Below, piece after piece: positions 5,594-33,079 of a stretch of 33,079 bases of DNA. The notes below the pieces were generated by a model. That model was not told where the DNA came from. It was given only the letters and a program-made list of their open reading frames with translations, and ran no database searches. Both the position numbers and the translations under genes were made by a program. Within the stretch, counting starts at the first letter, position 1. Each line of letters opens with the position of its first letter. Source of the DNA: a virus (lineage: Duplodnaviria > Heunggongvirae > Uroviricota > Caudoviricetes); IMG/VR virus record IMGVR_UViG_2698536401_000003, one strand, 5' to 3'.

Positions 5594-6622
5594 TTATTTC
5601 ACCTGAACCACCACAAATGCGTCCGGATCCGGCAACACCATCAACGGCGCAGACTGCGTCATGGTATATTCGCACCCCGGGTCCCCCACCTCTAACCAGT
5701 GTTTCGGATAACGAATTGCAGAGGTGATCCCTTCACTCAGCGCCTGGTTATCCTGGATTGCGCCATAACAACGGACACCCTCCACCTGAGTGTTTCCAAG
5801 AATCAGTGTGCCTTCCGGCAGATAACGCTGCTCATCCCCGTTTTCATCAACATACGTTGTTTTCGCCACCATGATGGCCAGATCACCGTAATAACCTTTA
5901 AAAGAAACCACGGACCCCAGATCTTTCAGCGCGGTTTCCAGTTCAGATTTTGAGCCACGGCGGGTATCCAGTTTTTCACGAAACAGTTTAAAACCGTTCA
6001 GCATACGCCAGACAGTACCGTCCATAATCGCAATATTGATGGTACCGGAAGCAAAATCGCAGTACGCATCCAGATCATGCGTCGGATCAAAGGTGTCAGT
6101 ATTCTGTTTTGACCATTCGCGTCCCCCTGCCTGCGTAATGTTATTGGCGGCAGAACGTCCAAAATCCACTTCCACCGTCTCAAACTGTTCACCGCTCATG
6201 GTGTACTTACCCTGCAGAACAGCGCTGACCGCCTGCATTTCTTCCACCTGCACAATCGCCTGTTCTTCCTGTTTCAGGTTGTCAGTCAGAATACGCAGGC
6301 GACGGTAGGCCGGGTCATTAAGACGGGCCGGATCTTCCCCCGGAAGACGCTCCACCGCCTGCTGATAATCCAGCCGGTGTTTTGGTTTAACATAGCCGGG
6401 GCGTAACACGCGGGTTTCACCACCACGACTGCGCAGTACCTTACCTGACACAACCGGAGACACATATGCCGCAACCGGTGTTTTTCCGGTGATTTTATCC
6501 AGCATCACTTCCTGAGTATGGAAAGTGACCGTACGACGAAAAAACAGCTCCAGAAACAGCGCACGGAATTTCACTTTCTGCTCGGTGTAGCCGAGCAACT
6601 GACGCGTGGTAAATAACCCCAT
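5594..6622 (-). CDS. E: Major capsid protein E
   Basis: ORF 5594..6661 trimmed to the ATG at 6622 (MGLFTTRQLLGYTEQKVKF), giving 342 aa; recalled similarity to lambda gpE along the full length (YVSPVVSGKVLRSRGG, PGYVKPKH, SAPLMVLPDPD). Confidence 0.9.
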   Translation of the reverse strand: MGLFTTRQLLGYTEQKVKFRALFLELFFRRTVTFHTQEVMLDKITGKTPVAAYVSPVVSGKVLRSRGGETRVLRPGYVKPKHRLDYQQAVERLPGEDPARLNDPAYRRLRILTDNLKQEEQAIVQVEEMQAVSAVLQGKYTMSGEQFETVEVDFGRSAANNITQAGGREWSKQNTDTFDPTHDLDAYCDFASGTINIAIMDGTVWRMLNGFKLFREKLDTRRGSKSELETALKDLGSVVSFKGYYGDLAIMVAKTTYVDENGDEQRYLPEGTLILGNTQVEGVRCYGAIQDNQALSEGITSAIRYPKHWLEVGDPGCEYTMTQSAPLMVLPDPDAFVVVQVK

Positions 6623-6691: not shown

Positions 6692-7027
6692 TCAGGCGTG
6701 GCTGATGGCACTTCCCACAAACGCGTTGGCTTTTTTCACCGCATCCACCGAATCCGGCCAGACCAGCGATTCGGTGGCAAACGTACCGCTTTTGTAGTAC
6801 GTCAGTGTGGGCTCGGTCCCGGCCAGCGCCAGTACCAGCACCCCCACAGCCGTTCCGGCTTTCTGACCATCCCATGCCACCAGTTTTCCGCTGGCGTCAT
6901 CCAGCATCAGTGGCGTCAGTGAAGGCGTGGCAACACTGATACCACTGGTACCTGTTGCGGTATATACCGGATCGCTTCCGGCAAAAATGCGCCCGTCCGC
7001 GCGCTTTTCTGTGGTGGTTTTAATCAT
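6692..7027 (-). CDS. D: Head decoration protein D
   Basis: ORF 6692..7057 begins with GTG; the internal ATG at 7027 has an AGGAGA SD and gives 111 aa. TPLMLDDASGKLVAWDG and YYKSGTF motifs match lambda gpD. Confidence 0.8.
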   Translation of the reverse strand: MIKTTTEKRADGRIFAGSDPVYTATGTSGISVATPSLTPLMLDDASGKLVAWDGQKAGTAVGVLVLALAGTEPTLTYYKSGTFATESLVWPDSVDAVKKANAFVGSAISHA

Positions 7028-7067: not shown

Positions 7068-7778
7068 TTACGGCATACTCATCAGCAGTTCTTCTTCCCC
7101 GTTCCCGGCAGTTCCGCCACCGGAAACGGCACTGGCGGCATGCTGTGCCATGAAGCGCTCAAAAAGTGTTACCTGTGACGGTTGCGATACTGATGGCGCA
7201 GCTGCCAGCAGCGTTTTCGCCTGCTCCACTGTCATTCCAGGTTGTTCAGCCAGCGCCTGTGCCAGTTTTTCGCGTCCTTTTGCTTCCGGCAACGCAATAA
7301 TTTGATCGCCGGTACTTGCCGTACCGGTTGCCGGTGCCGCTGCCAGTAGCATTTTCGCCTGTTCCACCGTCATTCCCGGCTGTTCAGCCAGCGCCTGTGC
7401 GAGTTGTTCACGCCCTTTTGCTTCCGGAAGTGCCATAATCTGCTCGCCGGTACTTGCCGCACCGGCAATCGGTGCCGCTGCCAGTAACGTTTTCGCCTGC
7501 TCCACCGTCATTCCCGGCTGTTCAGCCAGCGTCCGTGCCAGTTGTTCACGTCCTTTTGCTTCCGGAAGTGCCACAATCTGATCGCCTGTGCTGTCAGTAC
7601 CGGCAACCGGTGCTGCCGCCAGTAATGTTTTTGCCTGCTCAACTGACATTCCCTGCTGACCTGCCAGCATCTGCGCCAGTTTTTCGCGTCCTTTCGCCTC
7701 CTGACAATTCAGGATCCCCATCACGCGCTGATTTTCCTGGGACACCGCTTCAGCAACGGTGAGATTTTTTGTTGTCAT
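7068..7778 (-). CDS. Nu3: Nu3-like scaffold protein from an internal in-frame start within C
   Basis: Strong internal SD (ACAGGAGAATACG) followed by ATG at 7778 in the C frame (MTTKNLTVAEAVSQENQRVMGILNC...), analogous to the nested lambda Nu3 start. Confidence 0.55.
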   Translation of the reverse strand: MTTKNLTVAEAVSQENQRVMGILNCQEAKGREKLAQMLAGQQGMSVEQAKTLLAAAPVAGTDSTGDQIVALPEAKGREQLARTLAEQPGMTVEQAKTLLAAAPIAGAASTGEQIMALPEAKGREQLAQALAEQPGMTVEQAKMLLAAAPATGTASTGDQIIALPEAKGREKLAQALAEQPGMTVEQAKTLLAAAPSVSQPSQVTLFERFMAQHAASAVSGGGTAGNGEEELLMSMP

Positions 7779-8684
7779 CGTATTCTCCTGTGTAACAGAG
7801 TCGTTCAGAGCAGAAACCATTACATCAACGGCATCTGCAGCATTAATCAGTTGATCAGCCAGGCCTGTATCAATGCCTGCCTGACCGTCATAAACGGCAG
7901 CCTCAGTATTCATCACCACCGCTGAACTCAGCCCCGTATAAAGTGCCACCTTGTCGACAAACATCCGGCGGGCCTCATCAATACGGCGCTGAAAATCCGC
8001 ACGCACACCTGTCGGCAACGCCTGAATACTGTTGCCGTCAACCTTGTGCTGCCCGGAGTAAATCAGCGTGATATCCACGCCTTCCTGTGCCAGTTGTTTC
8101 TCGTAACTGGTGTGCGCCATCATCACACCAATCGAACCAATTTTTGCCGTCTGCGTGACCAGCCGACGCGTACAGGCCGCCGCCAGCAACATGGCGGCTG
8201 AACAGGCCATGTCATTACACAGCGCCCACACGGGCTTCTGTTCCCGCAGACGGTAAATCATGTCAGCACAGTCAAACGCCCCGGCAGCCTGACCGCCCGG
8301 GCTGTCGATATCCAGTAAAATGCCGCGTACATCCGGGTCGTTCACCGCTGACTTAAGACGGGCAGTCAGACCGTCATAACCGGTCATACCGGAATATGGC
8401 CGCAGGGTACCCATTTTATGTACCAGCGTGCCGCTCACCGGCAGAATGGCAATACCATTTTTCACCTGGTAACTCTTTACCGGACGCGGACCACCAGTCA
8501 TATAATCGGTAACCGCCAGCTGCATACCATCGGCATCAAGCTGAACGGCCTGCTGCGGAACGGCAAGGCTGCCCGCCCCCATCTCCTTACCCAGTGCGCA
8601 AAAGAAAACCCGCGCATAGGCGGGTTCCAGTAAAAGCGGCTCATTAAATGCCATCGCGGCAATATGTGATAAATTACAGCGCAT
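7068..8684 (-). CDS. C: Prohead protease C (S49/ClpP-like) with in-frame C-terminal scaffold region
   Basis: N-terminus HIAAMAFNEPLLLEPAYARVFFCAL matches lambda gpC; S49 protease motifs (GILLDIDSPGG, PVWALCNDMACSAA). 538 aa versus 439 in lambda because of tandem repeats in the C-terminal third. Confidence 0.9.
   Translation of the reverse strand: MRCNLSHIAAMAFNEPLLLEPAYARVFFCALGKEMGAGSLAVPQQAVQLDADGMQLAVTDYMTGGPRPVKSYQVKNGIAILPVSGTLVHKMGTLRPYSGMTGYDGLTARLKSAVNDPDVRGILLDIDSPGGQAAGAFDCADMIYRLREQKPVWALCNDMACSAAMLLAAACTRRLVTQTAKIGSIGVMMAHTSYEKQLAQEGVDITLIYSGQHKVDGNSIQALPTGVRADFQRRIDEARRMFVDKVALYTGLSSAVVMNTEAAVYDGQAGIDTGLADQLINAADAVDVMVSALNDSVTQENTMTTKNLTVAEAVSQENQRVMGILNCQEAKGREKLAQMLAGQQGMSVEQAKTLLAAAPVAGTDSTGDQIVALPEAKGREQLARTLAEQPGMTVEQAKTLLAAAPIAGAASTGEQIMALPEAKGREQLAQALAEQPGMTVEQAKMLLAAAPATGTASTGDQIIALPEAKGREKLAQALAEQPGMTVEQAKTLLAAAPSVSQPSQVTLFERFMAQHAASAVSGGGTAGNGEEELLMSMP
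7194..7700. repeat. Tandem in-frame repeats of about 138 bp (3 full plus 1 partial copy) inside the scaffold-coding part of C/Nu3
   Basis: 46-aa unit EAKGRE(K/Q)LA..QPGMTVEQAKTLLAAAP.AG..STG.QI.ALP recurs four times in the translated protein; the DNA shows the same roughly 138-bp periodicity. Confidence 0.8.
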
Positions 8685-17593: not shown

Positions 17594-17777
17594 GTCTGTA
17601 ACAACCGAACTGATAATCTGCCAGACCCGCCATAACAAGCTGGGTCAGTATTAACTGGCAGCGTTCGCGTGAAAGGTAAGTATTCTGCGCAATTTCCCCG
17701 ACGGTCGCCGGTTCGGTGACGCTTAATTCATTAAACACCACTCTGGCGGTTTCGGTCATATCCTGCTGTTTTAGCAT
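17580..17777 (-). CDS. Hypothetical small protein (65 aa), possible winged-helix DNA-binding fold
   Basis: ORF 17580..17870 trimmed to the ATG at 17777 (MLKQQDMTETARVV...) with a purine-rich SD; flanked by its own terminator. Confidence 0.45.
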   Translation of the reverse strand: MLKQQDMTETARVVFNELSVTEPATVGEIAQNTYLSRERCQLILTQLVMAGLADYQFGCYRRLPQ

Positions 17778-17898
17778 GTCTTTTTTCCTTTTCCGGTTAA
17801 CGTGACATACCAATAACTCTTGTCCAAAAAGCCAGCAAGCTGAAAGACCAGTATTAATAACCACCAGCACATTTAACGCACTGCGCTACTTTGCGGGC

Positions 17899-17924
17899 AC
17901 AAAAAACCCGCTCAGAGGCGGGTT
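17899..17924 (-). terminator. Rho-independent terminator downstream of the CPBP protease gene
   Basis: Minus strand: AACCCGCC-tctga-GCGGGTT stem followed by TTTTTTGTG. Confidence 0.55.
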
Positions 17925-18063
17925 CAGGCTATGAGGTGAAATAACCACTCTTAAAAGCATACATGATTTTTTACGTACGTAAATGCTTTGCCGTGCATAT
18001 TTCTCATGCAAATGTCACATCCTGTTATTTTTCAGTGTTATAAATTTAAAGCCATAGAAAAAA

Positions 18064-18888
18064 TCAATTATGTTTTAAGAATGGATAGGTAAAGAATAAC
18101 AAGTGACACAGATTCAGACCAAAATGGAAAAGGGTTGCCACCCACAAGCGCCCACTCCACATCCATGACAATCCATACACAACACCAGATAACGTAGCAA
18201 ATAATACAAGTAAAGCACCACCTGAATAGTGATAAAAACCAAACAACAAAGACGCCACAATTAACGCAATCAATGGAGACGTTACTTCTGATAGCCGTGA
18301 TTGAATATACCCTCTAAATAATGATTCCTCTGCCAGAGACACAAAAAACAAATTAGCCAATATAAACTCTGGCAACCACTCAGGAAAATGAATCTCTGGT
18401 TTTAACCCACCAAAAAAAACAGCCAAAAACAGGATAAGAGGAACAGAGAGCAACAGAGCCCCCCATTTCCACAAAGACACTTCTGATTTCACTTCTTTTT
18501 TAAACAAAGAAGCTGTACACAGGACTAACAAAAATGGCACCAGCGCTTTATCAAAATTAAAATACATTGTATAGGGAGTGCTTTGAGGTCCGACAGTAAC
18601 AGACTTTAGCACTACAGGATTGTGAAACCCTGGCCATAAATGGAAAGATAATGCTATGGCTGATAAAACTATGCCAGCTTCATATATGGATTTAGCCCAG
18701 GCGTTATATTTCCAGTTGAACTTCAAAATAATAAAAAAAACGATTGTAGAAACAAAAAACAACACAGGCCAATCAATAATATCATTAAGCATAGCCAGGA
18801 CAACAGACACCGTCAACAATGAAAAAGCCACTACCTTATGCCAACTGAGAGTTGACAGTGCCAGTGCTAACACAATCCACATAAACAC
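18064..18888 (-). CDS. CPBP-family intramembrane metalloprotease (CAAX protease/Abi family)
   Basis: 274 aa polytopic membrane protein with the three CPBP signature motifs: EESLFRGY (EExxxR), FGFYHYSG (FxxxH) and HFGLNLCH (HxxxN). Sits in a markedly AT-rich block with its own terminator. Confidence 0.8.
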   Translation of the reverse strand: MFMWIVLALALSTLSWHKVVAFSLLTVSVVLAMLNDIIDWPVLFFVSTIVFFIILKFNWKYNAWAKSIYEAGIVLSAIALSFHLWPGFHNPVVLKSVTVGPQSTPYTMYFNFDKALVPFLLVLCTASLFKKEVKSEVSLWKWGALLLSVPLILFLAVFFGGLKPEIHFPEWLPEFILANLFFVSLAEESLFRGYIQSRLSEVTSPLIALIVASLLFGFYHYSGGALLVLFATLSGVVYGLSWMWSGRLWVATLFHFGLNLCHLLFFTYPFLKHN

Positions 18889-19034
18889 TCCTTTTATTTA
18901 ATGATGAAGCTTGATTATCAATATTTTCAATTCACCTGGCAACATTTTGTTTACTTTCCATAAAATTCACGACCACAAAAAATAAACACATTGATTATAA
19001 ACACAGAAAACATAACCATAGTCACTATATATCC

Positions 19035-19409
19035 CTACCGCATATCCATATCTAACCTAACATTCAGAGCCATAAGCATTCCTTCAATAATACCTTCCGC
19101 TTTATAAAGTCTTTTACCAATAAGCCCATCAGAACATCTATGCTTACGTGCAAGAGCCATAAATGTCATTCCACCTACGTAATAATCCACCAACAAATCG
19201 TGCAAATACTGATTATTCTTGTTTAATCGTGCCATACAGCCACAAATTATCATGGCGTCATCATCAGAACACTGAGGACGTGATTTCACTTTAGTCGGGA
19301 TTAATCCTTTAAAACCAGCAGCTATCGAGGGCCATGTTACATCTTCATGATTATTTGCTGCCCATGCTCCCCACCGCTCCATAACCAGCTGAATATCACG
19401 CAACATCAT
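19035..19409 (-). CDS. Small phage antitermination protein Q-like (family assignment from memory)
   Basis: 124 aa; motifs [27 protein letters not shown] and [14 protein letters not shown] recalled from E. coli prophage proteins annotated as antitermination protein Q; located directly after rusA, the usual Q position. Confidence 0.55.
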
Positions 19410-19773
19410 TACATCCTCTTATTACGAATATATTCACACCCAGTCGCCCACCGCAAACAGGCAGACCACGCACTATATTGATTTCATCAAACTGCTCGTC
19501 GTCGATAATCAACCCGGCATGTGTGAGCGCATCCAGCGGCGCTTTCAGGATATTGTCCAGGTCGCGGCGGCGCTTATCCGGTGGCTCTGCAATAATCTTT
19601 ATCGCCAGCCTTCCGGACAGATTTAATTTCAGTCGCTGCTGGCGAACAATAAGCGCCACATCCCGGCGATAACGCTCCCCTGCTTTTGATACAAAATATG
19701 TGCTGCCACGACGACGCCAGTAGGTATTCACCGTCGGAAGGTAAGGCAAAACAAATTCTATGCGTTCAGTCAT
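19396..19773 (-). CDS. rusA: Holliday junction resolvase RusA
   Basis: 125 aa; [30 protein letters not shown] matches the RusA catalytic region (DRRRRDLDN...DD); typical nin-region position upstream of Q. Confidence 0.85.
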
Positions 19774-20832
19774 TTATGATTTCCACTTCAGGACGCCCGA
19801 ATTTTTCGCGTGCATTAAAAAACGAATCAGCAACAACAGCTGGCTGCCGTGTTTTTCTTCAAAATCTTTTACCCCGGCGTGTAGTTCGTTATGGCATTTA
19901 CGGCACAGCGGAATAACAAACAAATCGTCAACCTTTGTTCCCATCCCTCCCAGTCCATGACCAATGATGTGATGCGGATCATCTGCCTGATTGCCACACG
20001 TCATGCATTTCTGCGTTTTTACCCAGCGCGTGTATACGGGCATCTCTTCCCGTTGTGGTTTCTGGCGCTGGAGATACTGAGCCGGAGACTCCGGATCAAC
20101 AGTGATGCTTACCACCGTCTTTTCCTGTGGCGGGTTCTGTTGCTGGTGAGAGTAAGACGGCGGCACTATATTTTTTGTGCGCTGTTTCAGTATGCTGGTG
20201 GCGGTCTGTTCTCCCGGTACGATGTCGCTTTCGCGGTACACTGAGCGGATGTTTTCACCCGGAAGTTTCAGGATTCGACGCGCCATATTTTCGGTCATGG
20301 CATCCACCACATTATTTACAACAGCCCAGCAGTACAGTTCAGCCAGTGATAATTCACGCCCCTGCGTGCCATTCATTGCGTGACGGATGACGTCAATCAT
20401 CCAGGCTGCCAGATTTTGTTGAGCAAGCAGCTCCAGCGATTCTGATGTCTGGTCACGAAGCTGGTTGTCGCAGTGCCAGCACAACACCATCGCGCCGGTA
20501 CCGTAACGGTGTATGACGGTTTCACTGTGATGGTAATCACCATGAGGCCACTGGCAGGATTTAACATTGCGCAACAACCAGTCAGACAATGCACCAGTAC
20601 CACCAGCAGCACGAATCACCCGCTCATCGCTGAAAAATGGCAGTAATGATTTATCTTCCGCCAGCGGCTGGCGAACAGCAGGAACAACTCCGGACGGCAG
20701 ACCGCGCATGCTTTTCGGTTCCGGTTCCACCAGCACCCGAGGATTATGAAATACCCGCATGGATTCACGGCCCGGTTTTAGCACCACCAGCCCAAGTTCC
20801 GGCACCGGAACAGGTCGAAGTAATACCCGCAC
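19774..20832 (-). CDS. Cys/His-rich prophage protein (DUF968-like, recalled) with C-terminal HNH-like motif
   Basis: 352 aa; C-terminal KCMTCGNQADDPHHIIGHGLGG...PLCRKCHNELH; position between the nin genes and rusA. The true start may be internal. Confidence 0.55.
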   Translation of the reverse strand: MRVLLRPVPVPELGLVVLKPGRESMRVFHNPRVLVEPEPKSMRGLPSGVVPAVRQPLAEDKSLLPFFSDERVIRAAGGTGALSDWLLRNVKSCQWPHGDYHHSETVIHRYGTGAMVLCWHCDNQLRDQTSESLELLAQQNLAAWMIDVIRHAMNGTQGRELSLAELYCWAVVNNVVDAMTENMARRILKLPGENIRSVYRESDIVPGEQTATSILKQRTKNIVPPSYSHQQQNPPQEKTVVSITVDPESPAQYLQRQKPQREEMPVYTRWVKTQKCMTCGNQADDPHHIIGHGLGGMGTKVDDLFVIPLCRKCHNELHAGVKDFEEKHGSQLLLLIRFLMHAKNSGVLKWKS

Positions 20833-20833
20833 G

Positions 20834-21112
20834 TTACCTCCAGATGCGTTGCTGGTATGTGCGGGATGGACGCGGTGGACGTTCGGAATAAGGGAGCCTG
20901 ACAGAGATTATCCAGTGACGATAATCGAGGCTGAGGGCTTTCTTAACCTCGTATCCGCACCTGCCGTAACACTGAATCAGCCATTCGGCCTGTTCTTCAG
21001 TGCATGGGGGATGCTGGTACCAGTCAGATTTGAATACATGAGAACGCCGCCCGTGCCTGCTGGCAAGAGCGGCTGAATTATCAGAATTGTGTAATTTGGT
21101 CTTGTGCGCCAT
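20834..21112 (-). CDS. Hypothetical phage protein (93 aa, Cys-containing)
   Basis: ORF 20834..21193 trimmed to the internal ATG at 21112 because the first 80 nt of the ORF overlap a terminator hairpin; start uncertain. Confidence 0.45.
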   Translation of the reverse strand: MAHKTKLHNSDNSAALASRHGRRSHVFKSDWYQHPPCTEEQAEWLIQCYGRCGYEVKKALSLDYRHWIISVRLPYSERPPRPSRTYQQRIWR

Positions 21113-21184
21113 CTGTTTTCTCTGCTGGCGCAGCAGGTGCCAGTTGTTCAGGCTGGCGTGCAGATTGTAAACCAGAATGCCCGG

Positions 21185-21216
21185 AAAAAACAAAACCCGC
21201 CGAAGCGGGTTTTCAT
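21185..21216. terminator. Bidirectional rho-independent terminator downstream of the Doc-family toxin gene
   Basis: AAACCCGC-cgaa-GCGGGTTT hairpin flanked by an A-run and TTTTC; the same core recurs at about 22041-22058. Confidence 0.6.
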
Positions 21217-21227
21217 TGGAAGCGCCT

Positions 21228-21713
21228 TTAGTTTTGCTGTTCTATTTTAAGCTTGATAGTTTCATACAAAACAATAGTTGCGCCTGTTTTACATAATTCC
21301 CGGCTGTCATACGCGCGAGACCAATAACACAACCAGTTCTCGAGATCTTCTCGAGTATAGGTTTTGCAGGCCAGTCCCTCCGCCATTTCCACGATTTCAT
21401 CGCCTGGTGCTGTTAACTCATAGCCATTCAACAACAAGAAGACGCAACCAGCCATCATAGCTGTTCGTTTGTTCGCATTAGCAAACGGATGATTCTGAAT
21501 CAGACTTTCAATCAATACCGATGCCAGTACAAACATGTCATTAGTCTGTTCATACCATCGAACCATGCTGGGACGGGCCTGAGAAGAACTTAAGTTATCT
21601 GGACTCAGAACACCAACGGGCTCATCTGGCGTCTGTAATTCAATTAGGGAACGATTGATTTCAACAAGATCATCAACCGTAAGGTAATGCACTCCTTCAA
21701 CAATCTCAGCCAT
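21228..21713 (-). CDS. Doc (death-on-curing) family toxin, Fic/Doc superfamily
   Basis: Doc-type motif HPFANANKRTA (HxFx(D/N)(A/G)NKR); 161 aa from the ATG at 21713; a small ORF ends 18 nt upstream. Confidence 0.8.
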   Translation of the reverse strand: MAEIVEGVHYLTVDDLVEINRSLIELQTPDEPVGVLSPDNLSSSQARPSMVRWYEQTNDMFVLASVLIESLIQNHPFANANKRTAMMAGCVFLLLNGYELTAPGDEIVEMAEGLACKTYTREDLENWLCYWSRAYDSRELCKTGATIVLYETIKLKIEQQN

Positions 21714-21731
21714 AGAGCACAATACCCATCA

Positions 21732-21959
21732 TTACACTTTTGAAAGTTCTTCCATGGCTTTCTCATAACGAGAAAAACCGAAATCAAAAGCATTTTTCAC
21801 TTGTTCACGATGTGCGCAGTTTTCATCAATCGCTGGGCGAGGGACTGCCACAACGCTTTTATCGCGAGGCGGAATACTCAACCGCGTGTGTTTTTTGAGT
21901 GGGCAGCTCATACTAATGAGTCCTTTTGTTTTCCGATTATTGGCAAAGCCATGCACCAA
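21732..21959 (-). CDS. Candidate antitoxin for the Doc-family toxin (small upstream ORF)
   Basis: Small ORF immediately upstream on the same strand in the canonical antitoxin position. The start is ambiguous (TTG at 21959, GTG at 21956, ATG at 21911). No recognised Phd similarity. Confidence 0.45.
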   Translation of the reverse strand: MVHGFANNRKTKGLISMSCPLKKHTRLSIPPRDKSVVAVPRPAIDENCAHREQVKNAFDFGFSRYEKAMEELSKV

Positions 21960-22033
21960 ATTTGATGCAAAATAGATCTGTTTGAGATCCTTAGGATAGT
22001 CTAATGGTAGCTAAAATTACAACCTCATAATGC

Positions 22034-22058
22034 GACGAAAAACCCGCCGAAGCGGGTT
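22034..22058 (-). terminator. Rho-independent terminator downstream of hok
   Basis: Minus strand: AACCCGC-ttcg-GCGGGTT stem followed by TTTTCG. Confidence 0.5.
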
Positions 22059-22126
22059 AAGTGCGGGTGCGTTGAGGATGCCTGACACATCAGAGGTGGC
22101 GAGGGATTTCTCCCCCGCCAGGTCTC

Positions 22127-22282
22127 TTACTCCTCAGATTCGTAAGCTGTGAAGACAGCGACCTCCGTCTGGCCGGTTCGGATTCGTACCTCGCAGAGGT
22201 CTTTCCTCGTTACCAGTGCCGTCACTATGACGGTTAAACAGATGACGATCAGGGCGATTAACATCGCCTTTTGCTGCTTCAT
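22127..22282 (-). CDS. hok: Hok family type I toxin (host-killing membrane peptide)
   Basis: 51 aa MKQQKAMLIALIVICLTVIVTALVTRKDLCEVRIRTGQTEVAVFTAYESEE, near-identical to the chromosomal HokD/RelF-type Hok peptide as recalled. Confidence 0.9.
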   Translation of the reverse strand: MKQQKAMLIALIVICLTVIVTALVTRKDLCEVRIRTGQTEVAVFTAYESEE

Positions 22283-22339
22283 AGCCTGCTTCTCCTTGCC
22301 TTTCGGCACGTAAGAGGCTAACCTACGTTTGTGTAGCAT
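22127..22339 (-). CDS. mok: Mok (modulator of killing) overlapping reading frame, in-frame N-terminal extension of hok
   Basis: 70-aa ORF starting 19 codons upstream of hok in the same frame, as in mokC/hokC-type loci. Confidence 0.65.
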   Translation of the reverse strand: MLHKRRLASYVPKGKEKQAMKQQKAMLIALIVICLTVIVTALVTRKDLCEVRIRTGQTEVAVFTAYESEE

Positions 22340-22400
22340 AGATTGGGCCTCAGATTAATGTTAAGCGTCTTGCCGGACGCGTAATGTTAACTGGGGCTTT
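22300..22400 (+). ncRNA. sok: Putative Sok antisense RNA region (approximate)
   Basis: Inferred from hok/mok locus architecture, where the antitoxin RNA is antisense to the mok start region. Candidate -35/-10 TTGCCT-17 bp-TAACCT on the plus strand near 22294-22322. The boundaries are not determined. Confidence 0.3.
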
Positions 22401-22620
22401 TCTCTGTCTGCCTTACAGTGGCATGCCCGAGGCAGACAGCCTCAAGCACCCGCAACAATCTTACCGACACCGATAAGAAAACGCTATTTTTTATTGCCAG
22501 AACCTTCTGCCCAGGCTAATGTATCCGCGTCAGAACGGCGCAATGCGCTCGCCTGAGATACGTTTACTTGTCATTGGTGGCAACAGATAACGGCAATTGT
22601 TGTTTCTGTTTGTTTCCTTC

Positions 22621-22655
22621 AAAAACCCCGGACCGTCAATCCGGGGTTTTTGTTT
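22621..22655. terminator. Bidirectional rho-independent terminator
   Basis: AAAACCCCGGA-ccgtcaa-TCCGGGGTTTT hairpin followed by TTTTTGTTTGTT on the plus strand. Confidence 0.6.
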
Positions 22656-22736
22656 GTTATCCCCAGCGGCAAATCGAATACACCACCAGCGCCACCGCCA
22701 TTGCGATTCCTGCCGTTGTAAATGCCTCAGGCCAGG

Positions 22737-23603
22737 TCATCGTAAAACATCCTCCACACCAACCAGTCCGTTCTGCTTCAGATATTCCATCGCCTTATCA
22801 GGTAGATTGCTTGATTTATTGACGCTTTTTAACGAACTGGCTAATCGCTTAACCAACATTGTTAATTCGTTAACCTGTTTTCCGGATGCTTGTGGATTGT
22901 CAGTTTTACCAGAAGTGGCGGTACAGTCGGCGTTCCCACTCTTCTCCTCCTGCGACGGTTTTGCTGCAATCTGACTGGCATGTTTGTTAATGGTAACGAT
23001 CAGCTCTTGCTCAGCCTCATCAAGACAATCACTGATACCTCGCCTGTCACCGTCAAAATCATCGAAATCGGCGCGAACCCTGGCAAACTTCAGGATTGCA
23101 GACAACACCTCACCAGGAATTACCGGAGAGTTGGTTGACGTTTCCGAGATTTTCCGAAAATTATTGGTTGACGAATCCTTGTTTTCCCGAAAGCTTCCTG
23201 ACTGAAGCATGGCTTCGCGGCAATCGTTCCATCCTTCAGCATAATCACTATACGCAAGAGGCCAACCTCTTATGTATTCACGCGGCAACTTATCAGGCAC
23301 TACCAGCGCTGGCGATGCTGCATAAAGTGGTGTTATTTCTGCCCGAAAGTCACCTACTTTATGCAGTCGCACCCACCGTTTGGCTTCTGCTTTGTCAGAA
23401 TACATAGCGGTGAACGTATTATATTCATGGTCAATTTGCGTGAAGGTTGCCTTCCACGCCACCGGCTCAGCTTCCAGCGATGCCAGTGCAATTTTGAATA
23501 ACTCACCCTCTATCCGTGCCATCCCTGAATTGGGGTGACATTTCGTAATCGCTATTTTTAATTTGGCCTCTTCGATTAATTGTTCTTTGGTTAATTCAGC
23601 CAT
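22737..23603 (-). CDS. Hypothetical prophage protein (288 aa)
   Basis: Long ORF in the nin-region gene string; no motif I recognise. Confidence 0.65.
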   Translation of the reverse strand: MAELTKEQLIEEAKLKIAITKCHPNSGMARIEGELFKIALASLEAEPVAWKATFTQIDHEYNTFTAMYSDKAEAKRWVRLHKVGDFRAEITPLYAASPALVVPDKLPREYIRGWPLAYSDYAEGWNDCREAMLQSGSFRENKDSSTNNFRKISETSTNSPVIPGEVLSAILKFARVRADFDDFDGDRRGISDCLDEAEQELIVTINKHASQIAAKPSQEEKSGNADCTATSGKTDNPQASGKQVNELTMLVKRLASSLKSVNKSSNLPDKAMEYLKQNGLVGVEDVLR

Positions 23604-23734
23604 TTTTCATTACCGCCCTTTCGGGCGGCCTCCTGATGTTTTGAGGGTGCAGAAATCCCTCCGGTTAAGGATTTAATAAAATTCACTTCTGATTTAAATT
23701 TTTCAGTGTTTTGTTGTCAGGTGGTTTATCGCCT

Positions 23735-24046
23735 TTATGCTTCAGCCTTATTTCTCAGCCATACACAAACAGGACCATCTTCAGTGTCATGAATGGAACC
23801 AATGAACCAGCCTTCACCTTCCGGGCGCTCCGGTTTCCAGGAGGCAATATCGGGACCATCTGCGTCCAGATTAAAATCATCTTCATCCATAGTTCTGATG
23901 GTCCATTGAAGATTATTTTCCTCCATCCATGCGTTAAACTCTTCCGTTGAAATATGTTCTCTACCATCACAGAAATTTTCATATTCAGGATGCGTCCAGC
24001 AGCCATATGCATCACGTTCTACCGGCATTTCTTTGATTTCGTTCAT
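23735..24046 (-). CDS. Hypothetical acidic prophage protein (103 aa)
   Basis: ORF in the same minus-strand gene string; acidic and Trp-rich. Confidence 0.55.
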   Translation of the reverse strand: MNEIKEMPVERDAYGCWTHPEYENFCDGREHISTEEFNAWMEENNLQWTIRTMDEDDFNLDADGPDIASWKPERPEGEGWFIGSIHDTEDGPVCVWLRNKAEA

Positions 24047-24059
24047 AACATTAACTCCA

Positions 24060-24242
24060 TTAAAATAATGAAAAACAAATTAACCACACCACTACAACCG
24101 ATGCTATTAACACCCTGATTGCAAACAGTGGACTGATATGTCGAAAAGGATTTTCCCAGATAATAAAAGCCGCTGCCAGAAATGCACTGATCAGGAATAC
24201 AATAACAAACAGCTCAATTTTGATTATCCAGAACATATTCAC
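24060..24242 (-). CDS. Hypothetical small membrane protein (60 aa)
   Basis: Two hydrophobic segments; end overlaps the start of the upstream gene. Confidence 0.4.
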   Translation of the reverse strand: MNMFWIIKIELFVIVFLISAFLAAAFIIWENPFRHISPLFAIRVLIASVVVVWLICFSLF

Positions 24243-24535
24243 TGCATCGCCTTCTGTAAAATAACCGCATGCCCCAGCTTCTCCGCCAGTGCCAGTTCTG
24301 CCTTAGCACCTGCCGACCGCTGCCAGCCATTCAGCATATAAATCGCATCCACGCAACGTATCATCGCCATGCAGATATCCATGTACTGCAACTGAGTCAG
24401 GCCGTCCGGAAGTACTGCCGGATTTAAGACTGTGTGCCCCTCCCGTTTCAGTTCCTCTTCTGCCTTGTGGAACGCCTCACGGTTGAAATTTTTATACCCG
24501 GTCATAGGACCGGCGATATAAACCCTCACCCTCAC
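24239..24535 (-). CDS. DUF4406-like protein (nucleoside 2-deoxyribosyltransferase-like fold; recalled)
   Basis: N-terminal VYIAGPMTG motif characteristic of the family; 98 aa; nin-region position. Confidence 0.6.
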   Translation of the reverse strand: MRVRVYIAGPMTGYKNFNREAFHKAEEELKREGHTVLNPAVLPDGLTQLQYMDICMAMIRCVDAIYMLNGWQRSAGAKAELALAEKLGHAVILQKAMQ

Positions 24536-24924
24536 TCCATCACCTCCTGAAAATTACCCCGATAGAACGCCAGTACACGTTGCATTGATTCGCTGTTACG
24601 GCATTCCCGGCAAATTATGTTCATGTCTCTGTCGTAGCGACGGATTTCACCATCAGGTAACTTCCGGACCAGTGCCGGGTCAGCTTTCTTCGGAGTTTTA
24701 CACCACGCCTGATACGCCTGTTCTGATACAAAAACACCGTGTTTACCGGATATGTACAAATCACCACAAGCAACCACATCCACAAGACAACGTCTGACCG
24801 TATGCCAACCCGCCCCCGTTGCCCTCTCCAGTTGCGACATCGTCATGCGTTTGTTCCTGTGTATCAGCCCGATAATTCGTGCCTTCAGTTCTTCCCGCTG
24901 TTCGGGTGTAAAAACGCTTGCCAT
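24532..24924 (-). CDS. Hypothetical HTH/winged-helix protein (130 aa)
   Basis: Predicted HTH MTMSQLERATGAGWHTVRRCL; downstream of the DnaC-like gene. Confidence 0.55.
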   Translation of the reverse strand: MASVFTPEQREELKARIIGLIHRNKRMTMSQLERATGAGWHTVRRCLVDVVACGDLYISGKHGVFVSEQAYQAWCKTPKKADPALVRKLPDGEIRRYDRDMNIICRECRNSESMQRVLAFYRGNFQEVME

Positions 24925-24938
24925 GAGTCCTCCTGAAA

Positions 24939-25685
24939 TTACTTCACAACCCTTAAATGACTGACATTTGAACGCCAGCTATCCCAGTTAAAATTCACCC
25001 AGCGACCACCGTTCATGGTCATGCGGTCCATCACGCGCTCGCCAAGCAGCGTATTCATTGCCGTATGGTTCAGGTTCGTCAGCATCCCGACGCTGTGCAT
25101 CGAGGCTGTTCTGCGATCGACTATCTGGTTCAGTGTGACCTGTTCGTTACGCGTATCCCGCTGCATACCAATTTCATCCAGGACAAGCAGGTCAACTTCA
25201 CACAACCCCTGCAAAAATTTTTCGCCCGAGTTTTTGTTGTCGTAGTTGCCGTGTAACGCCAGCATCACATCCGCCACCGTCACCACAATCACGCTGCGAC
25301 CTTTCGCCAGAAGATGGTTGCCAATGGCTGCTGCCAGATGATTCTTTCCGGTACCCGGCTTACCGCTGAACACGAAATTTGTGCATCCGGTCATCATTTC
25401 TTCCGCGATGGATTTTGCCTGGCTCAGCGCGTGGCGTTGGCCATCGTTCTTCACCTGGTAATTCGCAAACGAACACTTCTGGTGCAACAGTTGGATACCG
25501 GAACGCTTCATAATTTTCTCCACCCGGATCTGGCGATTCTGGCGGTTAATTTCCTCACTACGCTTTCGCCCTTCTGCAAGCTGCCACTCTCGCCACTCGT
25601 CCACTGTCCGGTACGGCGCGGTTACATGCTGCGGGGCCAGCTTACGGATACGCTCAAGAACACCACCTGCCGCAATATTTTTCAT
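24939..25685 (-). CDS. DnaC-like replicative helicase loader (IstB-like AAA+ ATPase; YdaV-like)
   Basis: Walker A GKPGTGKNHLAAAIG and Walker B DLLVLDEIG; 248 aa; immediately downstream of the O-like initiator gene. Confidence 0.85.
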   Translation of the reverse strand: MKNIAAGGVLERIRKLAPQHVTAPYRTVDEWREWQLAEGRKRSEEINRQNRQIRVEKIMKRSGIQLLHQKCSFANYQVKNDGQRHALSQAKSIAEEMMTGCTNFVFSGKPGTGKNHLAAAIGNHLLAKGRSVIVVTVADVMLALHGNYDNKNSGEKFLQGLCEVDLLVLDEIGMQRDTRNEQVTLNQIVDRRTASMHSVGMLTNLNHTAMNTLLGERVMDRMTMNGGRWVNFNWDSWRSNVSHLRVVK

Positions 25686-25691
25686 AACCCG

Positions 25692-26645
25692 TTACCCCCT
25701 GAATCCCGGCGGAATTTCGGTGTCCGGTTCAGAAATGTGATTCACACAACGCTGTACAGGCGAACGTCCCAGACGAATAACCAGCTCATCCCATTTTTCG
25801 CGAAGCTTTGACGGGCTCATGACGTTTTTTACCCAGAATGGATCCCGTTGTACCCGACTGAACATTTCGCAAATTTGCCTGTGAGTTCTGCCATCCAGCA
25901 TCCGCATTGTGCGCACGTCATTGGCCCATGCGGTCCAGTTTGGTTCTTTCGGTCGCGTGATCTCGCCATCATCGCTGGCAGCCTGTTCGTAAAGACTCAC
26001 GATTCGCCCCCAGATCCACTGCGCACACGTCAAATCTTCCTGGCTGCCCCACTGGCGTTTTTTCGCACTGAACACAACCGCGTCAGGATGTCGGGTTAAA
26101 AAATCCTGTTCAGCCGTCTCCTCGTCCGGTTGCGAAGCTTCCGGACAAGAAGTGTTTTTATTCTCTGTAGTAATCTCTGTAGGATCATCGGGCCATTTTG
26201 ACCCGATGACATTGGGTCGTTTTGAACCAATGGAGTGTGTCATTTTGGCCTCTTCCATCGTGTCATTTTGACCTGATGGAGCGGCGCATTTTGACCTGAT
26301 GGATTCGCTCAATTTGCCATCATCTAAAAGCTTGCTCTCGTAATTGATCGTGTAGAAATTAGTCATATCGCGCTTTGATTTATTGAGCTTTTCGCAACGC
26401 AAAAGCCCCAGCGTTTTCAGACTTGCAAATGCGCGTTTTAACGTTGACTCTGACCAGAACGGGAACTGTTCCAGCCATTGTTCAGTTGTGTTATAAATCC
26501 AGCGAACACCATCACATTCCATGCCGGAACTGGTATCTCTCAACCAGTAATGCAGCTGCTGCAACACGATGGCTTCGTTCAGACCAATTTTCATCGCCAG
26601 CTGCGTGTTTATAACCAGCGGGCGTTCAGCAAAAAGGAGCTTCAT
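25692..26645 (-). CDS. Replication initiator (lambda O-like/YdaU-like) containing the origin iterons
   Basis: 317 aa; the internal DNA carries five direct repeats (iterons), as for ori-lambda inside gene O; precedes the DnaC-like gene. Confidence 0.7.
   Translation of the reverse strand: MKLLFAERPLVINTQLAMKIGLNEAIVLQQLHYWLRDTSSGMECDGVRWIYNTTEQWLEQFPFWSESTLKRAFASLKTLGLLRCEKLNKSKRDMTNFYTINYESKLLDDGKLSESIRSKCAAPSGQNDTMEEAKMTHSIGSKRPNVIGSKWPDDPTEITTENKNTSCPEASQPDEETAEQDFLTRHPDAVVFSAKKRQWGSQEDLTCAQWIWGRIVSLYEQAASDDGEITRPKEPNWTAWANDVRTMRMLDGRTHRQICEMFSRVQRDPFWVKNVMSPSKLREKWDELVIRLGRSPVQRCVNHISEPDTEIPPGFRG
26190..26310. repeat. Origin-like iteron array: five direct repeats of about 23 bp (CATTTTGACCYGATG core)
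   Basis: ccattttgacccgatg, gtcgttttgaaccaatgg, tcattttggcctcttcc, tcattttgacctgatgg, cattttgacctgatgg at roughly 23-bp spacing inside the initiator gene. Confidence 0.6.
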
Positions 26646-26666
26646 CCCCCCCCCCAGAACACGTTA

Positions 26667-27092
26667 TCAATGCACCACCACGGCATTTCCCGCTGGGCCG
26701 CCACGATTCATCTGATTGAAACCAGCAATCGCCACTGCGACAAAATCATCAGCGTCTCTCACCAGTCGTTCCCGCGTCTCCACCAGTTCCCGAAAATAGG
26801 CTGAACTGTGGCTGCGCATTCGGGCCACCAGCAGAGGTGGCATTGCTTTTTCGATCGCTGGTAACAACGCCTGAATTTTTTTAACCGCATCAGGAGTGTC
26901 TTTCTCCACCCAGCGGAAAATTTTCTGGGTGTTACGGCCCAGGGCTTCCGGATGGCTGTCGTCGTACAATTCCGGGAACGTCATACCGAGTTCGAAATAC
27001 GCTTTGGTAATTTTCGCAGCCGGTACTTTCTCGCCGTCTGGATGCGCCCAGGCATTCATCGCCATGCGGATGTGTTCATGCTTGATTTTCAT
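26667..27092 (-). CDS. YdaT-like protein (CII-position regulator of Rac-type prophages; assignment by size/synteny)
   Basis: 141 aa, starts MKIKHEHI; lies between the cro-like gene and the replication initiator. Confidence 0.5.
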   Translation of the reverse strand: MKIKHEHIRMAMNAWAHPDGEKVPAAKITKAYFELGMTFPELYDDSHPEALGRNTQKIFRWVEKDTPDAVKKIQALLPAIEKAMPPLLVARMRSHSSAYFRELVETRERLVRDADDFVAVAIAGFNQMNRGGPAGNAVVVH

Positions 27093-31295: not shown

Positions 31296-33079
31296 ATGAG
31301 TAAAGTCTTTATTTGCGCCGCCATTCCGGACGAACAGGCAATAAAGGAAGAAGGTGCAGTCGCTGTAGCCACTGCCATTGAAGCCGGTGATGAACGTCGC
31401 GCCCGCGCAAAATTTCACTGGCAATTCCTGGAACATTATCCGGCTGCTCAGGACTGCGCTTATAAATTTCTTGTTTGCGAGGATAAACCCGGTATACCCC
31501 GCCCTGCCCTCGATTCCTGGGATGCTGAATATATGCAGGAAAACCGCTGGGATGAGGAGTCTGCTTCCTTTGTACCGGTTGAGACTGAATCCGATCCGAT
31601 GAACGTCACTTTTGACAAGCTGGCCCCTGAAGTACAGAACGCTGTCATGGTTAAGTTCGACACATGTGAAAACATCACCGTTGATATGGTGATTAGCGCA
31701 CAGGAATTGTTGCAGGAAGACATGGCAACATTCGACGGACATATCGTTGAAGCATTGATGAAAATGCCAGAAGTTAACGCCATGTATCCGGAGCTTAAGC
31801 TGCATGCCATCGGGTGGGTTAAGCATAAATGTAAGCCTGGTGCCAAATGGCCCGAAATTCAGGCAGAGATGCGCATCTGGAAAAAACGTCGCGAAGGTGA
31901 ACGCAAGGAAACCGGAAAATACACGTCTGTTATTGATCTCGCCCGCGCCAGAGCCAATCAACAGAACACTGAAAATTCAACAGGAAAAATCAACCCGGTC
32001 ATTGCTGCCACTCATCGCGAATACAAGCAGACATGGAAAACGCTGGATGAAGAACTGGCCTACGCTCTGTGGCCTGGCGATATTAATGCCGGAAACATTG
32101 ACGGCAGCATCCATCGCTGGGCAAAAAATGAAGTTATCGACAAAGATCGCGAAGACTGGAAGCGCATTTCCGCATCAATGCGCAAACAACCCGATGCCGT
32201 CCGCTACGACCGTCAGACTATTTTTGGCCTTGTCCGTGAGCGTCCGATCGACATTCACAAAGATCCCGTGGCACTGAACAAATACATCACTGAATACCTG
32301 GCGACAAAGGGCGTGTTTGAGGATGAAGAAACAGACCAGAACACTGCTGATATTCTCCAGCCGTCAGCAGCACAAACTGATGCAGTGGAAACTGAAGTAT
32401 CTGATACCCAAAAAAATGAAAGCACGCTGGAAACTGAACCATCTGTAGAGCGTGAGGGGCCGTTCTACTTCCTTTTCACCGATAAGGATGGCGAAAAATA
32501 TGGTCGTGCAAACAAACTTTCTGGTCTGAATAAGGCGCTGGCTGCAGGGGCTACTGAAATCACGAAAGAAGAATATTTTGCCCGCAAAAACGGCACATAC
32601 TCAGGTTCACAACAAAATACTGGTGCATCTGACACGATCGCACAACCAGAGCCGGTAAAAGTTACCGCTGACGAAGTAAACAAAATTATGCAGGCAGCCA
32701 ATATCAGCCAGCCTGACGCCAATAAGTTGCTTGCTGTATCACGTGGTGAATTTGTTGCAGGGATTAGCGACCCGAATGATCCGAAATGGGTGAAGGGGAT
32801 TGAAACCCGCGATTCAGTGAATCAGAACCAGCAAAAAACGGAACAGAACGACCAGAAAGCGGAACAAAACAGCCCAAATGCGTTACAAAACGAGCCAGAA
32901 ACGAAACAACCTGAGCCAGTAGCGCAACAGGAACCGGAAAAAGTCTGCACCGCCTGCGGTCAGAGCGGTGGCGGCAACTGCCCTGATTGTGGCGCGGTGA
33001 TGGGCGACGCAACATACCAGGAAACATTCGATGAAGAGAATCAGGTTGAAGTTCAGGAAAATGATCCGGAGGAAATGGA
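31296..33079 (+). CDS. recE: Exodeoxyribonuclease VIII (RecE)-like, N-terminal portion; 3' end beyond the window
   Basis: Plus-strand frame open from the ATG at 31296 to the window end, absent from the ORF track because it has no stop. Translation contains [30 protein letters not shown], matching the recalled Rac RecE segment [30 protein letters not shown]. Confidence 0.7.
   Translation, partial: [594 protein letters not shown]

Follow-up and report, generated by a model that had tools for sequence, protein, structure and literature searches.

Protease/scaffold gene in a lambda-type head gene cluster

Analysis of the window (the whole stretch of DNA under study, 33,079 nucleotides) revealed a head maturation protease/scaffold fusion gene on the minus strand (positions 7068 to 8684; 538 amino acids plus stop), a homologue of lambda C and phage 21 gene 5. 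Its product matched the head maturation protease family PHROG 53 with an E value of 2e-218. An S49 (SppA-like) serine peptidase domain was located at amino acids 146 to 290 (7815 to 8249, minus strand; Pfam PF01343 Peptidase_S49, E 4e-33), and SppA structures (B. subtilis SppA, entry 3rst, and also 4kwb; E 6e-17) matched the same domain. The catalytic serine is conserved: the Ser of "NDMACSAAM" shares an alignment column with the Ser of SppA "GSMAASGGY", and the motif also corresponds to "NDMNCSAGQ" in lambda (lambda Ser166 / SppA nucleophile). The column of the general-base Lys was not clearly aligned in the SppA structure alignment. In DNA, the protease part is 73% identical to gene 5 of phage 21, the closest cultured phage.

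The protease/scaffold gene is placed between a lambda-family portal gene (8674 to 10245, minus strand; Pfam Phage_portal_2, E 1e-94), whose final 11 nucleotides at the 3' end are shared with the start of the protease gene, and two gpD/gpE-type genes. These encode a gpD/Shp-like head decoration protein (6692 to 7027, minus strand; Pfam HDPD, E 9e-22; a 336-bp coding sequence in a near-identical prophage) and a major capsid protein of the gpE family (5594 to 6622, minus strand; about 342 amino acids; Pfam Phage_cap_E, E 6e-65; a 1029-bp coding sequence in the NS-NP030 prophage). The annotation of the latter prophage, which lies beside potB/potA/pepT in the bovine E. coli strain NS-NP030 and is 99.6 to 99.9% identical to the window across the head-tail region, agrees with this arrangement, and RefSeq labels its 99.9%-identical copy of the gene as an S49 family peptidase. 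The Peptidase_S49 domain together with the portal, gpD-like and gpE-like neighbors bears out the C/Nu3-type identity given to the gene by a first-pass annotation of this DNA. That annotation had also put the product at about 100 amino acids longer than lambda gpC, and the difference is 99 (538 versus 439 amino acids). The kinship with lambda that it proposed holds for the type of gene; the closest relative is phage 21 gp5/gp6. Apart from the repeat, the gene is an unremarkable head gene of a lambdoid E. coli prophage, for which annotation already exists.

Over the structural genes, the NS-NP030 prophage is 99.6 to 99.7% identical to the window, and the identity drops to 92.8 to 94% or is lost in the lysis and early blocks (window positions 13512 to 14411, 21157 to 22038, 25754 to 26686 and beyond 27196). 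As judged from the alignments, this blockwise loss is typical lambdoid mosaicism. A tRNA-Gly gene (anticodon TCC; 16093 to 16165, minus strand) lies in the prophage late region between a DNA methyltransferase gene and the lysis genes and is annotated in NS-NP030 too. Accessory genes are also interspersed with the early and late genes of the NS-NP030 prophage (locus L004, 7446 to 7601 and 10312 to 11130; about 17 to 21 kb in the window); they encode the type I toxin HokD (hokD), a DNA methyltransferase and, immediately after the Q antiterminator gene, a CPBP-family intramembrane protease.

Four in-frame copies of a 46-codon module

Tandem Repeats Finder reported positions 7201 to 7701 as one array with a period of 138 bp, 3.6 copies, 84% matches, 0% indels and a score of 659; the runner-up tandem repeat in the 33-kb window scored only 73. 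The period equals 46 codons, and the array is in frame with the minus-strand open reading frame at 7068 to 8684. Translation of the gene revealed four complete units of 46 amino acids, each composed of a 39-amino-acid core and a 7-amino-acid linker. The core consensus across the units is xxQIxALPEAKGREQLAQALAEQPGMTVEQAKTLLAAAP, and the linkers between the cores are variable and rich in Ala, Gly, Ser and Thr.

Unit 1 (7587 to 7724, minus strand; amino acids 321 to 366) consists of VMGILNCQEAKGREKLAQMLAGQQGMSVEQAKTLLAAAP plus a linker. It is the orthologue of the single unit of lambda and of phage 21 Tri1, with core identities of 82% to unit 1 of phage 21 and 59% to the lambda unit. Unit 2 (7449 to 7586, minus strand; amino acids 367 to 412) is 90% identical in DNA to unit 3 (7311 to 7448, minus strand; amino acids 413 to 458). 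Unit 4 (7173 to 7310, minus strand; amino acids 459 to 504), which has a unique SVSQPSQ in place of the linker, is orthologous to the final unit in every relative examined. Units 2 to 4 are 87 to 90% identical to each other in protein. The array is followed by a nonrepeated C-terminal tail of 34 amino acids (VTLFERFMAQH...LLMSMP; 7071 to 7172, minus strand), which every copy-number variant retains and of which looser versions occur in phage 21, Gifsy-1 and lambda.

The first-pass annotation had described a 46-codon tandem repeat with three full copies and one partial copy at 7194 to 7700 and had suggested Tandem Repeats Finder as a check of its periodicity. The 138-bp array reported by that program within the frame of 7068 to 8684 establishes the repeat as real. 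The count is adequate as a DNA-level view; the "partial" copy is a full module with diverged edges, and the number was therefore corrected to four complete modules at the protein level. The span was essentially right, and the repeat reaches slightly beyond both ends (units 7173 to 7724).

The scaffold and capsid-assembly families PHROG 8399 and PHROG 8940 matched in four stretches (PHROG 8399, head scaffolding protein, E 1e-51), and the scaffold part was without any NCBIfam model. Pfam hits of T2SSK, Peptidase_C23, Bac_DNA_binding, HTH_15 and DUF732 on the repeat region were rejected as spurious; none had an individually significant stretch, and these weak hits result from the summing of weak matches across the repeated units.

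Two further tandem repeats were noted in the window. One, at 26263 to 26316 (23-bp period, 2.3 copies), lies inside a minus-strand open reading frame of 317 amino acids (25692 to 26645) in the early/replication region and may represent iterons. The other, at 32823 to 32909 (21-bp period, about 3.5 copies), is close to the window end.

A putative internal start for a nested scaffold protein

A Shine-Dalgarno sequence, AGGAG (7785 to 7789, minus strand), lies within the coding sequence, separated by a 6-nucleotide spacer from an ATG at 7778 to 7776. This ATG, Met303, opens a nested in-frame reading frame (7068 to 7778, minus strand; 236 amino acids plus stop) for a putative Nu3/gp6-type scaffold with all four units inside. 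The internal ribosome binding signal and the ATG at 7778, already marked in the first-pass annotation as the start of a Nu3-like scaffold carrying all the repeats, are thus both present (AGGAG at 7789 to 7785), and all four units lie downstream.

Met303 aligns with the start and ribosome binding site annotated for gene 6 of phage 21, the Nu3 analogue (M81255), an internal start that the annotation itself calls "putative." An SD-like purine run precedes Met302/303 in the window, PapRG, TW10690, 08-00022, STEC005, STEC711, phage 21 and Gifsy-1. Among the eight sequences, this run encodes different residues (QENT, KENA, REVN, QEET, KESA, RGGT and TGGT), and its retention despite these differences points to selection acting on the RNA signal and not on the protein. 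On this comparative evidence, the Met303 start most likely also yields an abundant 236-amino-acid scaffold that carries all units.

Lambda Nu3 starts at Met239, within the end of the protease domain. This lambda-type start was rejected for the window, where the equivalent codon is ATT (Ile), and Met303 was preferred. At the next Met, Met241, which is the counterpart of lambda Met245, the upstream signal is no more than a weak GAGG at a distance of 8 nucleotides.

Predicted structure of the module

The 236-amino-acid nested product was modeled with AlphaFold2 from a 20-sequence alignment (mean pLDDT 74.6, pTM 0.30). In the model, an N-terminal helix leads into four repeats, each built of a short helix, a turn, a helix, a loop and a further helix. 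The units reached pLDDT values of about 80 to 89, the linkers had lower confidence and the tail was disordered. A lone unit was predicted as a helix-loop-helix with pLDDT 69. The scaffold part is thus predicted to form a beads-on-a-string array in which each module contributes a short helix, the EAKGRE turn, a helix, the PGMT loop and a helix.

Fold and sequence searches of the PDB returned nothing informative for the module, and the unit profile had no hit below E 0.4; sequence and profile matches in the PDB were confined to the protease domain (SppA, ClpP). Comparison of the unit with the P22 coat-binding domain and with solved P22/phi29 scaffold elements gave no detectable structural similarity.

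Relation to phage 21, Gifsy-1 and lambda

The 1993-era GenBank record of the phage 21 head genes (M81255) annotates gene 5 and a nested gene 6 with a putative ribosome binding site. In gene 6, it lists three repeat regions, "Tri1 box," "Tri box" and "Tri3 box," labeled "function unknown." Translation of phage 21 gene 5 showed the Tri boxes to encode the module of the window units in three diverged versions, and an HMM built from the unit matched the units of lambda, phage 21 and Gifsy-1. The repeat was therefore already known from the feature table of M81255. Our literature search on the phage 21 "Tri box," on Nu3 structure and on scaffold tandem repeats found no discussion of it in accessible papers.

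Phage 21 genes 5 and 6 share with the window the gene order portal, protease/scaffold, decoration protein and major capsid protein, as well as a ribosome binding site and ATG at the homologous codon (302, versus 303 in the window), followed by the repeated module and a similar tail. They differ in having three old, diverged units, whereas the window has four, of which units 2 to 4 are homogenized or recently reamplified and whose number is polymorphic (two to five). Core identities among a phage's own units are 49 to 54% in phage 21 and 44 to 59% in Gifsy-1, and Tandem Repeats Finder reported no DNA-level repeat in phage 21. These data suggest that the window lineage carries a homogenized or recently reamplified version of an old triplication. 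Novel with respect to phage 21 are the one additional unit, the homogenized units and the documented copy-number polymorphism.

The prohead protease STM2605 of the Salmonella prophage Gifsy-1 (498 amino acids) likewise has three units and an internal AGGAGG plus ATG at codon 302; its units, unlike units 2 to 4 of the window, are diverged from one another. Lambda C/Nu3 shares the S49 protease, a C-terminal scaffold domain common to a nested in-frame product, the module IMGILNCEEAHGREEQARVLAETPGMTVKTARRILAAAP, a comparable tail and the head gene neighborhood. Lambda differs in having exactly one unit within its shorter gpC, preceded by an unrelated spacer of about 50 amino acids.

Copy number in complete and draft genomes

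The 1-kb repeat region matched 106 of 5,426 complete E. coli genomes, 99 of them in one place. The length in about 94 of these 99 genomes corresponds to four units, and this state is kept across alleles that are 13 to 17% apart in DNA. The 1617-bp gene occurs at full length and with at least 98.9% identity in 17 independent complete E. coli genomes. The gene of PapRG-04-4 is exactly 138 bp shorter (492 amino acids, three units), and that of STEC005 encodes a 584-amino-acid protein with five units; the partial-match pattern of STEC005 was also seen in three further STEC strains. In E. coli cq9 (locus L006, 66 to 1683), the orthologous four-unit gene is annotated as frameshifted (pseudogene), and its units are intact in one frame.

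Among IMG/VR contigs with window-type alleles, two units were found in L059 and L060, three in L051, L052 and L055, four in 43 loci and five in L027, where L027, L051 and L059 are draft assemblies with identical internal units in which collapse or expansion errors are possible. The L060 allele likewise stems from a draft assembly. Every length variant in the E. coli genomes and IMG/VR is a multiple of 138 bp, in frame and with the same tail. The first-pass annotation had considered that copy number could vary between isolates and had suggested a comparison across related prophages. This comparison gave three, four or five units in complete E. coli genomes and two to five in IMG/VR contigs. An assembly artefact, which that annotation had named as a possible refutation, is not supported by the 17 independent complete genomes with the four-unit gene. 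Four units are the stable, dominant state, and the array is not hypervariable. Many database homologues (P0001 to P0120) are "partial" S49 peptidases whose first or last residue falls within the array; short-read assemblies break at the 138-bp array, and copy numbers from draft genomes are therefore unreliable and need caution.

A profile built from the four window units was run against 1.84 billion representative proteins and returned 533 proteins at an E value of at most 0.001. A single unit was present in 57 of the 59 full-length representatives (at least 380 amino acids) among the top profile hits, at a median of 50 residues from the C terminus. In loci from species-representative genomes, 53 of 60 had one unit, five enterobacterial species had three (E. 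coli, Shigella, E. albertii, Trabulsiella and Providencia) and one Bradyrhizobium had two. The four-unit array was absent from all records of the INPHARED phage collection. The EAKGRE and PGMTVEQAK motifs are conserved out to Alphaproteobacteria. One copy of the module is the norm in more distant relatives, and several copies are the exception.

The Bradyrhizobium protein (P0082; locus L011, 5001 to 5492) is a stand-alone protein of 163 amino acids with two modules and without a protease domain. It is encoded in a small phage-like cluster that consists of a small-terminase-like gene, the P0082 gene, a gene for a 297-amino-acid protein and, further on, a tape-measure gene. The neighbors of P0082 had no informative family hits and gave no help toward the partner of the module.

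Probable recombination between units and constraint on each core

The units at the two ends of the array are each orthologous from genome to genome. Units 2 and 3 of the window, besides their mutual 90% identity, both have "unit 3" of the TW10690-type allele as their closest match. In STEC005, units 2 and 3 contain the 3' half of unit 1, and unit 2 of PapRG alternates between stretches of window unit 2 and window unit 3 and has no changes of its own. Unequal crossing-over among the 138-bp units, together with gene conversion, would produce such patterns, and the sequences suggest that the array grows, shrinks and homogenizes in this way. No Chi sites or other DNA signals were found within the array. 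All 11 Chi octamers of the window lie in 15292 to 26825 (3 GCTGGTGG on the plus strand and 8 on the minus strand), with none in the head-tail half.

To estimate constraint, pN/pS was calculated between positional homologues of the window and two colinear four-unit alleles, TW10690 and STEC711. The ratio was 0.06 to 0.17 in the four unit cores, 0.12 to 0.14 in the protease part, 0.56 to 0.62 in the linkers and 0.31 to 0.39 in the tail, values that gene conversion can distort between repeats. The cores are constrained like the protease and the linkers are relaxed, which indicates that each unit is kept as a protein module and not as mere spacer length. The synonymous divergence from TW10690 is 0.09 in the protease part versus 0.36 in the scaffold part, which suggests a recombination junction near codon 303 of the protease gene.

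Proposed function of the array

We propose, with a probability of roughly 0.6, that this is a protease/scaffold gene of the phage 21 gp5/gp6 type with four binding modules reshaped by unequal recombination. As far as sequence comparison can tell, the module represents the conserved core of Nu3-type scaffolds, normally present in single copy. The full-length product would be an S49 serine protease with the scaffold domain as its C-terminal part. By analogy with lambda, this long product would carry the protease into the procapsid via the scaffold domain that it has in common with the abundant nested scaffold. Each module would independently make its own contact with the gpE-type capsid protein, with other scaffold/protease chains or with both, and the tandem array would thereby place several binding sites in cis on one chain (multivalency). 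After assembly of the shell, the S49 protease would degrade the array, probably via exposed linkers. Unequal crossing-over and gene conversion would generate the in-frame alleles of two to five units, of which four is the common number. The expression of the nested protein, the binding partner and any effect of valency are points that we infer only.

In lambda, gpC degrades Nu3 ahead of packaging. Herpesvirus UL26/UL26.5 follows the same genetic logic, in that a long fusion of protease and scaffold has the same C terminus as an abundant scaffold nested within it; the herpesvirus UL26 protease differs in its unrelated fold (assemblin), and the system is without a tandem module array. Yeast two-hybrid analysis in lambda detected Nu3-Nu3, Nu3-C and Nu3-E interactions (PMC3224144). 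The scaffolds of P22 and phi29 hold coat protein through helix-loop-helix elements (PMC3185693), and the small helical hairpin of P22 gp8 or phi29 gp7, within a disposable internal scaffold, offers an analogy for binding of coat protein by the unit (PMC3185693).

Alternative explanations

The main rival to binding modules is that the module is needed once and that the extra copies are a nearly neutral stutter, tolerated passengers that only lengthen the linker of a flexible, disposable protein. It would fit the single copy that is normal in distant relatives, the alleles of two to five units found side by side in closely related prophages and a genome size that does not track unit number (lambda, one unit and 48.5 kb; phage 21, three units and 42.9 kb; four-unit UViGs, 44 to 47 kb). 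Passengers would not be expected to show pN/pS values of 0.06 to 0.17 in all four cores against about 0.6 in the linkers, nor a four-unit state held in about 94 of 99 complete genomes across alleles diverged by 13 to 17%, and the triple state of phage 21 and Gifsy-1 is old enough for the units to have fallen to 44 to 59% identity with the motif retained. The constraint on every unit and the stability of the four-unit state weaken this reading, which we regard as doubtful. A single unit nevertheless suffices in lambda and three do in phage 21, so that extra units are dispensable for T=7-type assembly and may be nearly neutral. Within the scaffold itself, the roles could also be divided differently: the nonrepeated C-terminal tail could be the real capsid-binding element, for which herpesvirus and P22 scaffolds provide a precedent, and the units could serve as oligomerization or spacer elements.

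The same genome sizes speak against a molecular ruler in which the number of units sets scaffold length and hence procapsid size or T number. The array is extended, with beads on a string, in the model, and scaffolds do set capsid size elsewhere, as the P4 Sid external scaffold does (PMC7552001). The capsid protein, however, belongs to the same family and has the same length (about 342 amino acids), and the ruler, very unlikely in our view, was rejected on the missing trend of genome size with unit number. The linkers might instead be S49 cleavage sites, so that the scaffold is cut into peptides of about 46 amino acids able to exit the shell and repetition serves removal. Their richness in Ala, Gly, Ser and Thr, poor conservation and low model confidence suggest exposure, and lambda gpC is known to degrade Nu3. 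A Nu3-C interaction was also recorded in the two-hybrid study (PMC3224144). Cleavage has no need of core conservation, yet EAKGRE and PGMTVEQAK persist to Alphaproteobacteria; we consider it extremely unlikely that removal explains the repetition, a reading which is compatible with binding modules and not exclusive of them. It is scarcely credible that the array arose as an assembly error or that it acts at the DNA level independently of the protein, for example as an opposite-strand gene or a recombination signal. The many "partial" database homologues that end in the array and a plus-strand open reading frame of 102 amino acids (7454 to 7762) would be in line with this, but the four-unit gene is present at 98.9% identity or more in the 17 independent complete genomes, all variants are multiples of 138 bp that preserve the minus-strand frame, the substitution patterns fit that frame and the array is free of Chi sites.

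Implications for scaffold evolution

Under the binding-module reading, the number of modules might further act as a rapidly adjustable "valency knob" of the scaffold, with unequal crossing-over producing alleles of two to five units that differ in contacts per chain. We consider this unlikely. If true, it could alter how procapsids nucleate, how faithfully they form or how susceptible they are to capsid-hijacking satellites; four units would be favored in the present prophage lineage where one is sufficient in lambda, and the role of the conserved Nu3 module could be approached directly by experiment through the natural allelic series. Nu3 is among the less understood parts of the classic assembly pathway, and the partner of the module is known from two-hybrid data only. 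The module behaves as an independent cassette that is present one to five times, each copy being selected as strongly as the protease, and a natural deletion/duplication series is available for testing its binding and valency.
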